37,014 nt of DNA from Octopus sinensis (Eukaryota), in contig NW_021836880.1 of assembly GCF_006345805.1 (NCBI RefSeq), positions 1 to 37,014 of the forward strand, in the 5' to 3' direction. A program made the position numbers and the translations under genes. The notes beneath the pieces are model-generated. The model was not told the origin of the DNA. It saw only the letters and a program-made list of their open reading frames with translations, and ran no database searches. Below are positions 5,856-36,690 of this stretch, in pieces (the first letter of the stretch is position 1; each line of letters starts with the position of its first letter).

Positions 5856-5891
<36 letters not shown>

Positions 5892-5892
5892 A

Positions 5893-5948
<56 letters not shown>

Positions 5949-6010: not shown

Positions 6011-6408
6011 AGTGGCTGTGTGGTAAGTAGCTTGCTAACCACAACATGGTTTCCGGGTTCAATCCCACTACGTGGCATCTTGGGCAAGTGTCCTCTCCCT
6101 GCTATAGCCCCGGGCTGACCAAGCCTGTGAGTGGATTTGGTAGACGGAAACTGAAAGAAGCTGTCGTATATATGTATATATATATGTATGGTGTGTGTTT
6201 GTGTGTCTGTGTTGTTCCCCTAGCATTGCTTGACAACCGATGCTGGTGTGTTTACGTCCCCGTCACTTAGCGGTTCGGCAAAAGGAGAACCGATAGAATA
6301 AGTACTGGGCTTACAAAAGAATAAGTCCCGGGGTCGAGTTGCTCGACTAAAGCGGTGCTCCAGCATGCCGCAGTCAAATGACTGAAACAAGTAAAAGAGT
6401 AAAAGAGT
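6011..6408 (+). mobile_element. tRNA-derived SINE family A, near full length
   Basis: A-box-like TGGCTGTGTGG, B-box GGTTCAATCCC, internal TA/TG microsatellite, tail GCGGTGCTCCAGCATG..CAGTCAAATGACTGAAAC(AAGTAAAAGAG)n. About 11 full or partial copies in the window. Confidence 0.9.
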
Positions 6409-6889
6409 ATATATATATATATGTGTGTGTGTGTTTGTGTGTTTGTGTGTGTGTGTGTATATATATTAATATATGTATGCTTGTATGCATGTATGTATGT
6501 ATATAGCGCTCTTTTTAGGTTTGAACTCAAAGTAGATAATAACAAACATTATGATGCACATCATGACAAACATGACAGATGTGCTACCATTGGACAAAAG
6601 CGAACCATCGAATTTTTCTTTGCATTTTAGCTTTACTCTTCCCAGTGAGACAAAAGGGGTAAGAGGCTATTCGAAATGGAAAACAGAATATTATTTATGA
6701 GTGCAAAATCTCGTGCGTAACATCTAGCTATTAGACTATCACGTTACAGATCTTCAGACTAGATATGAAGTCCGGTAAATATGATCCGATATTCAGAATA
6801 TATAGGGAAGTGTACAGGGAACAGCTACTATGTAAGATAAATGGATAAGAGTCTTTTCGAACTTTCTGTTAAGTTTGGTTAACAATAAT

Positions 6890-9164: not shown

Positions 9165-9460
9165 ACTCAACCAATCAGATCGGCTTTGTGTAACAAACTG
9201 AACTGAAATATTCCCGGTCAACTTTTCTAGAAATTCCGTGTAATGTTATAAAAGCATGGATTATGAATTCCCAGACAGAACAAACTCAAGTGCTGTATAA
9301 ACCACGGTTGGTCAGTTTTGTGATAAGGTTTTTCTCACAGTTTTCTACTTTTTCTGTCTTTAATAACAGCCATGAACAATTTTCTTAGGAAAAATTATTT
9401 TATACAATGAAGGCTTGTAACTATCACATTCACAATCTGCTGTATGATGTATTCAGGTAA
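9165..9460 (+). promoter_or_regulatory. Candidate Pol II promoter and first exon
   Basis: CCAATCAG at 9171, TTCTAGAA at 9225, TATAAAAG at 9247, ATG at 9407, donor-like CAG|GTAACT at 9456/9457, all in the longest simple-repeat-free stretch of the window. Motif-level evidence only. Confidence 0.3.
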
Positions 9461-9648
9461 CTATTATACATATGTAAATTCAAATGATCCGAAGAGTAAA
9501 AATAAATATGGACATCTATATACGAAAATATACGACAATACTAGTGTGGTCATTCTCACCATTACAAGACCCTTGCCTAATATTTTGTGTTTCCAACGAC
9601 GGATTAAAGATTAAAGCCCGCCTTAAAACCTGAATAAATTCGACGAAT
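9391..9648 (+). repeat. 258-bp segment duplicated at 14765-15013
   Basis: By-eye alignment gives about 9 substitutions plus a 9-bp indel (CTGCTGTAT). Confidence 0.92.
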
Positions 9649-9686
9649 ACAATAAAGGGCTGAGAACTAAGCTACATCGCCATATC

Positions 9687-9936
9687 ACTCTTTACTCTCT
9701 TTTACCTGTTTCAGTCATTTGACTGTAGCCATGCTGGAGCACCGCCTTTAGTCGAACAAATCGACCCCAGGACTTATTCTTTGTAAGCCTAGTACTTATT
9801 CTATCGGTCTCTTTTGCCGAACCGCTAAGTTACCGGGACGTAAACACACCAGCATCGGTTGTCAAGCAATATTGGGGGGAAAAACACGGACACACAAACA
9901 CACACACACACACACGTACATACACACACACACACA

Positions 9937-14756: not shown

Positions 14757-15064
14757 TGATGTTCAAAATTATTTTATACAATGAAGGCTTGTAACTATCA
14801 CATTCACAATGATGTATTCAAGTAACTATTGTACATATGTAAATCCAAATGATCCGAAAAGTAAAAATAAATATGGACATCTATATACGAAAATATACGA
14901 CAATACTAGTGTGGTCATTCTCACCGTTACAAGACCCCTACGTAATATTTTGTATTTCCAACGACGGATTAAAGATTAAAGCCCGCCTTAAAACCTGAAT
15001 AAATTCGACGAATTGATGTTCAAAATTATTTTATACAATGAAGGCTTGTAACTATCACATTCAC
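14757..15064 (+). repeat. 1.2 tandem units (257-bp period) homologous to 9391-9648
   Basis: TGATGTTCAAAATTATTTTATACAATGAAGGCTTGTAACTATCACATTCAC occurs at 14757 and again at 15014. Confidence 0.9.
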
Positions 15065-20472: not shown

Positions 20473-20533
<61 letters not shown>

Positions 20534-20737
20534 GTGTCTATGTGTCTGTGTTTTCCTCCGAACATCGCTTGACAACCGATGGTGGTGTGTTTACGTCCCC
20601 GTAACTTAACGGTTCGGCAAAAGAGACCGATAGAATAAGTACTAGGCTTACAAAGAATAAGTCCTGGGGTCGATTTGCTCGACTAAAGGCGGTGATCCAG
20701 CATGGCCGCAGTCAAATGACTGAAACAAGTAAAAGAG
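20345..20737 (+). mobile_element. SINE family A, 5'-truncated
   Basis: Matches 6100-6408, including the tail. Confidence 0.9.
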
Positions 20738-23888: not shown

Positions 23889-24267
23889 TATATGGATATA
23901 TATGTATATATGTATATATCTATGTATGCATGTATGTATGTATTTCGATATGTATGTTTTGTGCATGGTCTGACTGAAATAGTAAGCTGTTTATATTTTA
24001 TTTACTTCGAGTCTGTTGTAGATATTTCCGCTGCAGATGGGAAGCTTCCTTTAAAAATAAATGTCAATTGTTTTAGAAAAATTTCAGAAAAAAAAGTAAA
24101 CATTCTTTCTTTTTGAGACGACATTTTCCGGTGAAGGAAGATGTAGGAGCTACTTTCACATACCTCTGTCTCTTATCGCCGAATGATTCTTTCCTTCAGG
24201 ACATTACACATACATACAGATGTATGCATGTTTGTATGTATATACGTACGTACGTATTTATGTATAC

Positions 24268-24681
24268 TTTTTTTATCTTTTACTTGTTTTAGTCATTTGA
24301 CTGCGGCCATGCTGGAGCACCGCCTTTAGTCGAGCAAATCGACCCCAGGACTTGTTCTTTGTAAGCCTAGTACTTATTCTATCGGTCTCTTTCGCCGAAC
24401 CTCTATGTCACGGGGACGTAAACTCACCAGCATCGATTGTCAAGCGATGTTGGTGGGGACAAACACAGACGCACAAACATATACACACACATCCATATAT
24501 AGATATATACATATATACGACAGGATTCTTTCAGTTTCCGTCTACCAAATCTACTCACAAGGCTTTGGTCGGCCCGAGGCTATAGTACAAGACACTTGCC
24601 CAAGGTGCCACGCAATGGGACAGAACCCGGAACCATGTGGTTGGTAAACAAGCTACTTACCACATATCCACTCCTACGCCT
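24268..24681 (-). mobile_element. SINE family A, full length
   Basis: Head AGGCGTAGGAGTGG through tail; reverse complement of 6011-6408. Confidence 0.92.
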
Positions 24682-32278: not shown

Positions 32279-32490
32279 GTAAAATGAACATCTAGTCTCA
32301 ACAGGAAATTAATTCCAGAAACTTGACATTCTCGTGAAGAACTAAGTGTGGTTGTTAGGGTGAGGTGTAGAGAATATGGGTGGCGATAGATTGGAAGAAG
32401 AGTAAATCAGAAGTACAAGCAAGGACCTTGCTGTGATAGCTAGAATTTTCCACTCTCTACGACGCATTAAAACAAGCAACTTTATCAGGC

Positions 32491-32567
32491 TTACATTATT
32501 TACATTATTTACATTATTTACATTATTTACATTATTTACATTATTTACATTATTTACATTATTTACA
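32491..32567. repeat. 9-bp minisatellite (TTACATTAT) x ~8.5
   Basis: Direct reading; the unit is the reverse complement of TGTAAATAATGTA near 33810. Confidence 0.95.
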
Positions 32568-32690
32568 TTTGACGGATATTTGTATCAACCAACGTTTTGG
32601 TTGATACACCCTCCAGCCTTCATCAGGTGTCTTGGGGAAATTTCAAACCTGGGTTCTTATTCCTAACGTATTTTTTGATGTTGTTGTTAT
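32568..32690 (-). mobile_element. Inverted copy of the hammerhead block at 33663-33825
   Basis: Minus strand GACAC-CTGATGA-AGGCTG-GAGGGTGTAT-CAACC-AAAACGTT. Confidence 0.85.
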
Positions 32691-32765
32691 GGCATATGGC
32701 GTAGTGGTTAAGTGCGCGGGCTACTAGCCCCAAAATTCCTAGTTCAATTCCAAGCAGTGACCTAA
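32691..32765 (+). mobile_element. tRNA-like Pol III head (not a functional tRNA)
   Basis: A-box TGGCGTAGTGG at 32697, B-box AGTTCAATTCC at 32741, anticodon-arm-like GGGCTACTAGCCC. The acceptor stem does not pair. Confidence 0.7.
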
Positions 32766-32795
32766 ATAATAAGGATAATAATAATAATAATAATA

Positions 32796-33017
32796 ATCCT
32801 ACGCAAAATACTCTCTATGTAATCCCAAGGTTTAAAACAAACTTTTTAAAAAAATTTATCTATTAGACATTCACTAGTACAACACCAAAAAAAAAACCCC
32901 AAATATATGGCCCACTAGGCATAACAACAACGTGAACTTCCAACCTGTTGTCTTTTGAGGTCTCTGGGTGAGACTTGGAACCAACTTGTTCAGACATAAA
33001 GCAAAAGTCAAACATAG
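32796..33017 (+). mobile_element. Second R4/Dong-type 3' fragment inside (TAA)n
   Basis: Begins ILRKILSM* (compare TLRKVFEK* at 24923), followed by a 3' UTR. (TAA)n on both sides. Confidence 0.7.
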
Positions 33018-33040
33018 AATAATAATAATAATAATAATAA

Positions 33041-33070
<30 letters not shown>

Positions 33071-33072
<2 letters not shown>

Positions 33073-33611
33073 CAGGCAGTAGCTCTCATGGCTTCTGATC
33101 TTAACTGATTGGAAGTGTTATCATGTACATTGTTTTGTCTTGGTATAAAAGATGGGCTACAGCAAATATTCTGCTCAATACCACAGATTTGCTTGTCAGT
33201 TGTTTGACCTTAACCAGTTGAGCATGTCCCTTAGTGGCTGAAGATATGTGCATCTCTGATCACGAGCAGAAGTAGTGGGGGAGCATCATAGCCATGTGTT
33301 GAGAGGGATTCTTTGGGGTTTGAATAGTTCACCTCTGGAAACATGGGTGGTTCTTTCAACATCCTTAAACAACCCTTATTCAGGGACCGTTTGAGCGGGA
33401 TGGGCTACTCAACCTGAAGAAAATTCTAACTGGGCCCCACCTGCAAGGTCATGTGCTGTTTATCTTGATATGAGATCACCATGTCGCGCACATATGGTTG
33501 TGATGCATGTGCCTGGTGTACCTTTATCAGACGGGTAGTCATGATGGGTATATTGGGCTTCGTATATTTTACCCCAGTGTCACTTTGATGGCATGAACTG
33601 CTCTCTCACTC
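33071..33611. mobile_element. 541-bp non-coding insertion bracketed by (TAA)n
   Basis: Sharp boundaries to pure TAA arrays on both sides and no long ORF. Probably a TAA-targeted retroelement 3' UTR or non-autonomous element (inference). Confidence 0.6.
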
Positions 33612-33664
<53 letters not shown>

Positions 33665-33727
33665 AATAACAACAACAACATTGAAAAATACCTTAGGAAT
33701 GAGAACTCAGGTTCAAAATTTCCCCAA

Positions 33728-33773
33728 GACACCTGATGAAAGCTGGAGGGTATATCAGACGAAACGTTGTGTT
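33728..33773 (+). ncRNA. Minimal type I hammerhead-like motif
   Basis: GACAC-CTGATGA-AAGCTG-GAGGGTATAT-CAGAC-GAAACGTT-GTGTT. Intact core, helix I GACAC/GTGTT, palindromic AACGTT, two mismatches in helix II. Confidence 0.75.
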
Positions 33774-34121
33774 AACAACAAACAAGATGAGGACAAATAT
33801 CCATCAATTGTAAATAATGTACATAATTCCTCATCTGTTAAATATAGAACTGTGTTTAATTAGGCTTAAATCGTCAGCAGAATGTCTAAGTTGTTCTTCG
33901 ATCTGGGCGAAATAACAAATTACTCTCAAACTGTGTTAGAAGGAGAGGAACAAAGGAGTTGAGAAAGAGAGGCCATGCTGGATTAGCTTGAAGGGAAAAT
34001 AAACAGGAGGGTCACAGACAGAACGCCCTTTTTGTTTTAATATCATAGGTCTATTTAAGTATGGCTGACCTGGGAGCTAGACACCAACGACAGTTAACAT
34101 GAGCACATGAACGACAACAAA

Positions 34122-35894: not shown

Positions 35895-36270
35895 AGCTTG
35901 CTTCCGAACCACATGGTTCCGGGTTCAGTTCCATTGCGTGGCAACTTGGGCAGGTGTCTTCTACTATAGCCTCGGGCCAACCAAAGCCTTGTGAGTGGAT
36001 TTGGTAGACCGAAACTGAAAGAAGCCCGTCGTATATATGTATATGTATGTGTGTGTGTGTTTGTGCGTCTGCATTTGTCACCCCCTCCCCAAGTCGCTTG
36101 ACAACCGATGCTGGTGCGTTTACGTCACCGTAACTTAGCGGTTCGCCAAAAGAGATCGATAGAATAAGTACTAGGCTTGCAAAGGACAAGTCCTGGAGTT
36201 AATTTGCTCGACTAAAGGCTGTGCTCCAGCATGGCCACAGTCAAATGACTGAAACAAGTAAAAGAGTAAA
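35895..36270 (+). mobile_element. SINE family A, near full length
   Basis: Matches 6028-6408. Confidence 0.92.
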
Positions 36271-36274
36271 GGGT

Positions 36275-36690
36275 ATACATACATACATACATTCATACAT
36301 ACATACATACATACATACATACATACATACATACACACACATACATACATACATACATACATACATACATACATACACACATACATACATACATACATAC
36401 ATACATACATGCATACATTGGTACATACATACATACATACGTAATACATACATACATACATACATACATGCATACATTGGTACATACATACATACATACG
36501 TAATACATACATACATACATACATACATACATGCATACATACATTGGTACATACATACATACATACATACGTAATACATACATACATACATACATACATA
36601 CATGCATACATACATACATACATACATACATACATACATACATACATACATGCATACATTCGTACATATATATACGTACTTACATACAAT
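36275..36690. repeat. (ACAT)n array with three ~60-67-bp higher-order units
   Basis: The landmarks gcatacattggtac...cgtaatac recur three times between 36410 and 36580. Confidence 0.92.

Follow-up and report, generated by a model that had tools for sequence, protein, structure and literature searches.

A head-to-head terminal-repeat copy of an abundant Penelope family in Octopus sinensis carries a tRNA-derived segment likely to serve as an internal Pol III promoter

The stretch of DNA analyzed here (the window) comprises positions 1 to 37,014 of contig NW_021836880.1 of Octopus sinensis (assembly GCF_006345805.1). An earlier note, made from the letters alone, described a composite element close to the end of this stretch, in which a tRNA-like head is followed by a (TAA)n linker with two insertions and by a block containing a hammerhead, with an inverted arm upstream, and all of these parts are present in the sequence. 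The features of the locus are as follows:

32481..32493, plus strand: left copy of a probable target-site duplication, 13 nt compared with 33856-33868, 2 mismatches
32491..32569, minus strand: local tandem expansion of a 9-nt unit, 8.8 copies, at the outer end of the short arm
32549..32688, minus strand: inverted "short" arm of the block of the Penelope terminal repeat (pLTR), tail-less, with an internal deletion (alignment and end class)
32586..32631, minus strand: minimal hammerhead in the inverted arm, damaged by an altered GAAA core and a mismatch in stem II
32690..32764, plus strand: tRNA-derived head, the 5′ part of the Penelope pLTR, colinear with genomic tRNAs, no cloverleaf
32697-32707, plus strand: A box of the head (motif position)
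32741-32751, plus strand: B box of the head (motif position)
32765..32797, plus strand: first part of the (TAA)n linker of the pLTR (repeat finding)
32798..33017, plus strand: later insertion 1, a LINE 3′ end that terminates in (TAA)n; a relative at locus L013 reads as a restriction-like-endonuclease LINE
33072..33611, plus strand: later insertion 2, a TAA-targeting repeat of ~550 bp whose 5′ truncation point differs by locus
33612..33678, plus strand: remaining (TAA/CAA)n linker (sequence and repeat finding)
33679..33854, plus strand: "long" pLTR-block arm with tail, 93-95% identical to the best genomic copies (also by end class)
33699..33854, plus strand: Penelope ORF codons 1-52, without a stop in the window copy and crossing the hammerhead and the tail
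33728..33773, plus strand: type I minimal hammerhead with its core intact and stem II mismatched at 2 positions at its base; cleavage is predicted after 33768
33828..33854, plus strand: Penelope "tail", in one arm only
33856..33868, plus strand: right copy of the probable target-site duplication, 13-nt match with the left copy, 2 mismatches

The head and the block were both correctly recognized in the earlier note, with boundaries that had to be moved from 32691-32765 to 32690-32764 for the head, and from 33663-33853 to 33679-33854 for the block proper. The inverted upstream copy of the block is also real, but it is not complete, as its last ~30 nt, which form the tail, are missing. This arm (32549-32688, minus strand) is 80% identical to 33671-33827 with one gap, and it is prolonged to 32491 by the tandem of the 9-nt unit, which is present as about 1-3 perfect units at the arm ends of other copies versus 8.8 in the window. 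The LINE of insertion 1 (32798..33017) we take from its motifs to be R4/Dong. Runs of TAA separate the two insertions (33018-33071) and follow the second one (33612-33663); both insertions are present elsewhere with differing 5′ truncations, and the TAA linker frequently takes up other elements. The ~550-bp repeat (window 33072-33611) is abundant in its own right and occurs also away from the Penelope element, with seven 3′-complete copies in a 400-kb unselected sample, six of which are followed by TAA runs. Taken together, the window locus is a dead, ORF-less, head-to-head copy of a Penelope end-repeat, which, as we infer, later received two TAA-targeted insertions and decayed. Elsewhere in the window there are copies of another dispersed SINE-like repeat family (6011-6422, 9682-9924, 20495-20737, 24220-24676 and 35895-36320) and a direct duplication of 258 nt with 93% identity (9391-9648 and 14765-15013).

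That the head and the block form one linked unit, as the earlier note proposed, was borne out across the genome, where a same-strand block was found within 1.3 kb downstream of 79 of 86 heads. Three of the seven blockless heads enter further linker insertions, two are second arms starting in the linker, and two (L045, L053) are unexplained. An unselected sample of forty evenly spaced 10-kb stretches (399,900 bases) contained four elements, in each of which head and block occur together, and a weak head-like match of 31 nt, from which the number of insertions in the genome is estimated at about 27,000 (95% interval 7,400-70,000). The block gave 3,303 first-look candidates, the best of them 93-95% identical, and the copies differ from the majority by ~5% outside CpG. 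A search with a negated pattern upstream of the block (62 matches) returned no recurrent alternative upstream sequence. In a search of sequencing runs, the matching runs bore six organism labels, with no RNA run on record among them, and contigs from three span the ORF-to-block stretch piecewise.

The origin of this unit is indicated by eight heads that extend upstream into a common sequence. A motif taken from this sequence had 467 matches in the genome and none in the control, and in all 30 loci fetched with this motif the head lies ~30 nt past an ORF stop codon, the upstream sequence being the end of an RT and GIY-YIG ORF. In 23 of 30 loci the long end of the block adjoins the N-terminal part of the ORF; at L351 the ORF has a pLTR on both sides, and at L359 as many as 198 codons are open from an ATG inside the block, through the hammerhead and the tail. 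The ORF majority, built from 109 fragments that are 6% diverged, remains open for a further 782 codons beyond the 52 of the block, which gives about 834 in total, and the full-length ones among its 109 homologues have 825-885 aa. No intact full-length copy was found among the fetched copies. The full unit can be written as head-(TAA)n-block-[ORF of ~834 codons, ATG in block]-30 nt-head-(TAA)n-block. The autonomous element sharing the block, which the earlier note suggested looking for, is therefore at hand, with the block as the N-terminus of its ORF. Mobilization by a Penelope RT, as proposed in that note, agrees with the insertion geometry and with the RT and GIY-YIG ORF flanked by head and block, while the further proposal of an independent SINE or retrozyme borrowing a PLE enzyme is not supported, as head and block together make up the pLTR of such an autonomous element and overlap the start of its ORF.

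Several properties place this element among the Penelope/Poseidon elements. It has a single ORF with RT motifs followed by a C-terminal GIY-YIG, an assignment that rests on motifs and homologues, as Pfam made no call on two fragments. The endonuclease contains CxC at 731/733 and His at 769 and in the 790-791 region, with no linker CxxC; a CCHH endonuclease without the CX2-5CxxC linker finger is the Penelope/Poseidon arrangement described in PMC8557442, and the Neptune ORFs of the same genome do carry the linker CxxC. A hammerhead motif in the pLTR is a further Penelope/Poseidon trait. Hence, the sequences point firmly to a Penelope family that is abundant and decayed and whose terminal repeat, unusually, starts with a tRNA-derived head, and a repeat with tens of thousands of copies that resembles a tRNA SINE should be annotated as Penelope. 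Two candidate observations were discarded along the way: Neptune-type PLEs, found via Pfam GIY-YIG and considered as the partner, have nothing in common with the block, and long copies seemed to share a fixed 5′ end only because the reference was truncated.

Other elements were also observed in these searches. In L289 and L295 the RT region is internally inverted relative to other copies, in a twin priming-like manner. Several Neptune-type PLE families (L131-L137, L150) have open ORFs of 762-883 codons, stop to stop, and longer-stem hammerheads; the 3′ ends of L148, L146 and L140, from a Neptune-like family, contain near the end what may, as judged by eye, be a hammerhead whose core carries a change of the U3-A8 type. 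The GIY-YIG matches at L110 and L111 resemble an SLX1-type host gene or a retrocopy more than a PLE. A second minimal-hammerhead repeat of ~210 bp (L151, L241-L260; e.g., G000:C1:57408-57608) has the same core layout with different stems, lacks a tRNA head, is inserted in (TA)n and gave 2,388 first-look candidates, with no ORF-linked copy in 20 loci.

Over its full length the head can be aligned with genomic tRNAs, its first base corresponding to tRNA position 1. In a comparison set of 28 ARAGORN sequences representing six real isotypes, the best match was tRNA-Arg(TCT) with z=9, compared with z of 4-7 for other tRNAs, although the alignment does not make this isotype a firm one. Both the A and B boxes are intact in the family majority, in which the cloverleaf is lost. 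Neither the head nor the hammerhead was detected by Rfam or ARAGORN, both being recognized by motif and alignment; the Rfam matches inside the window were microsatellite artefacts. RNase P processing at the head was also considered, and it is unlikely because the fold, by inspection, has no cloverleaf and no acceptor stem. The short copies (about 270 nt plus linker) resemble SINEs in being short and in having a tRNA-derived head with A and B boxes. They do not form a separate non-autonomous family moved by a LINE RT with a simple-repeat 3′ tail, as the SINEBase definition has it, because the unit is part of an autonomous PLE and its 3′ ends are two fixed PLE sites.

The two hammerheads of the window are damaged in different ways, as had been noticed earlier: the downstream one keeps its core, with stem II mismatched at two positions at its base, while the upstream one has lost a core base. 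The ancestral form reconstructed from them (stem I, CTGATGA, unpaired A, stem II, GAAACGTT, stem I′) is identical to the majority of 43 genomic block copies, and the consensus that the earlier note called for consequently has an intact core. This majority contains the CUGANGA, GAAA and NUH core elements, stems I and II and a palindromic stem III of a minimal hammerhead. The pattern has 8,301 exact matches in the genome versus 22 for the reversed control, which is above chance, and 82 of the first 100 matches listed belong, by eye, to the tRNA-headed Penelope family. Stem III is a palindrome without a loop, and therefore could form only between two copies. A dimer fold was feasible in computation, and the minimum free energy folds of monomers were no better than those of shuffled sequences. 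Head-to-head insertions have one sense motif per strand, and such copies could therefore cut only in trans. Among 145 copies chosen without use of the hammerhead motif, the free core position N7 is the sole non-CpG core site with a common variant (29 copies: 27 A, 2 C), which is a subfamily variant; it alters an amino acid, while the adjacent synonymous core site is invariant. As this pattern amounts to one event, the sequence comparison lends weak support to a function of the hammerhead. At the predicted cut site there was no DNA end among 127 arm ends and no end in three RNA-seq runs; a search for a circle junction at this site in three RNA-seq runs from one study, which is a weak test, also gave none. 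No retrozyme-type tandem monomer arrays were present in any locus examined, the direct repeats being ORF-separated partial tandems. It is predicted that the hammerhead would cleave only as a dimer or with the help of protein, and it is probably unnecessary for insertion.

The ends of the arms define how the copies are inserted. The 127 arm ends are bimodal, with 56 short (block position 133-149), 69 long (168-176) and two between, and both block ends also occur as loose ends of RNA reads. As many as 36 of 39 head-to-head pairs combine one short, tail-less arm with one long arm bearing the ~30-nt tail, and in loci not picked for length this combination was seen in 18 of 21 pairs (P=0.0007). Target duplications of at least 9 nt flank 28 of the 39 pairs, compared with 8% of shuffled pairings, so that the inverted copy, which the earlier note had taken as a Penelope hallmark, is a family-wide product inside one target duplication. 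Solo copies starting at the head mostly lack an adjacent target duplication. PLE hallmarks described in the literature include an inverted 5′-truncated arm and, at one end, a tail of 30-40 nt (PMC8557442), and the octopus family has these together with partial-tandem pLTRs and the target duplication, as expected of Penelope/Poseidon. In the description of PAc, the Penelope of the green anole, the protein cuts both strands and extends them from two sites within the RNA that mark the limits of the tail, and ribozyme cleavage is not needed (PMC11167929). The near-universal pairing of tailed and tail-less arms supports, from within a genome, the initiation at two sites and on two strands that PAc shows in vitro. 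For the short ends, a telomerase-like stuttering of the 9-nt unit was considered and rejected, as the number of units is equally variable in both arm classes. The same long and short pattern was seen in an unrelated Neptune pair of the same genome (L148), and in L006 and L012 the second arms start within the (TAA)n linker, not at the two usual sites, which may represent a third priming site.

The opposite ends of the copies bear on the question of where the RNA begins. Of the full heads, 8 of 13 in the unselected set, 16 of 17 picked by the block and 30 of 32 picked by the head stop within 0-7 nt of tRNA position 1. Of 89 arms chosen without reference to the head, 63 end before the head start and 26 reach it; 21 of the latter stop there and 5 extend past it, whereas truncation inside the ORF predicts about 2.5% of stops per 8 nt. 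The sense strand has no TTTT in the head, the block or the ORF majority; there are 0-2 such runs in five natural long copies versus 9-10 in five Neptune ORFs of equal T content, and 2-3 in two shorter Neptune stretches. Compared with codon-shuffle nulls the depletion in the ORF is borderline (P=0.047 and 0.023). Low Phe was set aside as independent support for Pol III, being common to close homologues and within the range of distant ones. In the three RNA-seq runs from one study, reads were equal on both strands and 86% ran into flanks, no pile-up of molecule starts or ends was seen, which is a weak test for a short uncapped RNA. RNA depth at the head dropped by only about half (1,439 at 6021 versus about 710 at 5860-5939). 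The arm stops at the head start and the ORF without TTTT suggest, at the level of sequence, transcription by Pol III, and its use by short copies is likely.

We consider it probable that the locus is an ORF-less head-to-head pLTR insertion of an abundant autonomous Penelope/Poseidon element, in which the tRNA-derived segment with A and B boxes likely sets the RNA's 5′ end as an internal Pol III promoter. The RNA would likely start at the head, and by analogy to PAc the GIY-YIG nuclease of the element would nick both strands about 12 nt apart, after which the RT would prime from each nick at one of two internal RNA sites, around block positions 147 and 176. Such two-site priming would leave a short arm facing a tailed one head to head, both enclosed by a target duplication, with the two cDNAs joining where they are complementary over a short stretch. 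SINE-sized copies, of which the window copy would be one, would result from priming in the first pLTR of a head-started RNA, while priming in the second pLTR of a tandem would give ORF-bearing 5′-truncated copies. The priming sites are only ~250-300 nt from the head, and therefore any head-started RNA, be it a short pLTR transcript or the 5′ end of a full-length RNA, would yield SINE-sized copies that end at the first base of the head. A bolder version, which we regard as tentative and rather doubtful, is that the autonomous coding retrotransposon is itself transcribed by Pol III from the captured tRNA promoter, with a terminator-free RNA of ~2.9 kb starting at the head, cap-less translation from the ATG about 20 nt past the TAA linker, and SINE-sized copies arising from its 5′ end via internal RT initiation.

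A different explanation of the head, which we think unlikely although it has evidence on its side, is that an ordinary Pol II-driven Penelope carries a captured tRNA-derived SINE as a passenger in its pLTR, and that copies pile up at the head through self-priming or cDNA annealing at a palindrome and not at an RNA start. The head start does hold a 10-nt near-palindrome at the boundary, 18 of 54 heads stopping at this boundary keep 5-7 nt and thereby part of the palindrome, and 12 of 32 inverted-junction heads stopping there are symmetric. Palindromes are known from the 5′ ends of Penelope pLTRs, where self-priming has been given as their explanation (PMC3846280), a pLTR promoter of the Pol II type has been described (PMC3846280, PMC8557442), and nothing Pol III-like appeared in the RNA data. 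However, the boundary coincides with tRNA position -2 to +1, and the other 36 of the 54 heads stop within 0-4 nt without the left half of the palindrome. In the remaining 20 of the 32 inverted junctions, which are asymmetric, the partner arm falls short of the head-start palindrome. The preservation of the A and B boxes in the majority despite the loss of the cloverleaf, and the lack of TTTT throughout the unit, also argue against this explanation.

It is improbable, in our assessment, that the short copies constitute an independent tRNA-headed, self-cleaving SINE or retrozyme moved in trans by a PLE, with the ORF-linked copies as a side branch. Such an origin would accommodate the excess of ORF-less over ORF-linked copies, as reflected in the 5 of 89 arms that go past the head; the short copies retain A and B boxes and could serve as secondary source genes, and their length and structure agree with the SINEBase definition (PMC3531059). 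Yet short and ORF-linked copies have the same head, linker and block and a similar divergence of 5-6%, the block is the N-terminus of the ORF itself, and neither tandem monomer arrays in the examined loci nor a DNA or RNA end at the predicted cut site were found. Least credible is that a simple tRNA-(TAA)n SINE and a fragment of a PLE came to lie side by side by chance at the window locus. The TAA linker as a hot insertion target and the two heads without block and without evident reason would fit it, but it is refuted by the linkage counts, which are 79 of 86 heads and all four elements in unselected DNA, and it conflicts with the fixed position of the head between ORF stop and ORF start.

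SM-alpha repeats of Schistosoma have a tRNA origin and are transcribed by Pol III. Like the octopus unit, they are short repeats with a SINE-like part and a type I hammerhead (PMC8490949), while the octopus unit differs in being a pLTR with an ORF start, a tail and inverted arms; the part of that source considered here mentions no autonomous element containing SM-alpha. Non-LTR retrozymes are also non-coding, hammerhead-bearing derivatives of PLE pLTRs, but they consist of tandem units each with a hammerhead, in contrast to the dispersed, head-to-head octopus family (bioRxiv 10.64898/2026.07.22.740005), and a term search of the text of that preprint gave no tRNA, Pol III or promoter. The motif itself shows no substantial difference from the minimal hammerheads of metazoan PLEs, as far as these are described in PMC4209133, sharing type I, a 5-bp stem I, an unpaired nucleotide before stem II and a palindromic stem III without a loop; dual motifs on opposite strands, 100-700 bp apart, are also described for metazoan PLEs (PMC4209133).

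The closest counterparts of the coding element are PAc (PMC11167929) and the Penelopes of Adineta vaga (PMC3846280), which, as described there, share the single RT and C-terminal GIY-YIG ORF of ~840 aa, the ORF start inside the pLTR, the pLTR hammerhead, partial tandems, the inverted 5′-truncated arm, the optional ~30-nt tail and target duplications of 8-14 nt. The octopus pLTR differs from them by its 75-nt tRNA-derived start with A and B boxes, the (TAA)n linker and the lack of sense TTTT. The literature search, which covered publications and not the repeat libraries Repbase and Dfam, found no PLE with a tRNA-derived pLTR segment, and the Penelope pLTR promoters described in PMC8557442 and PMC3846280 are of Pol II type. 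Pol III promoters in mobile elements have been described for non-coding parasites, namely SINEs and TRIMp3 (PMC10886601). The TRIMp3 elements Cassandra, Helenus and Ajax share with the octopus pLTR the Pol III boxes derived from a small RNA in a terminal repeat, the loss of the parent fold, and a probable origin by insertion of a SINE into the repeat (PMC10886601). They are non-autonomous LTR elements, whereas in the octopus family the coding element itself bears the head. For autonomous partners, the authors of the TRIMp3 paper expect transcription by Pol II and a repeat that is not shared (PMC10886601). If a coding Penelope does have a terminal repeat with a tRNA-derived promoter, it would break this Pol II rule, and would also provide a direct route from a PLE to SINE-like offspring.
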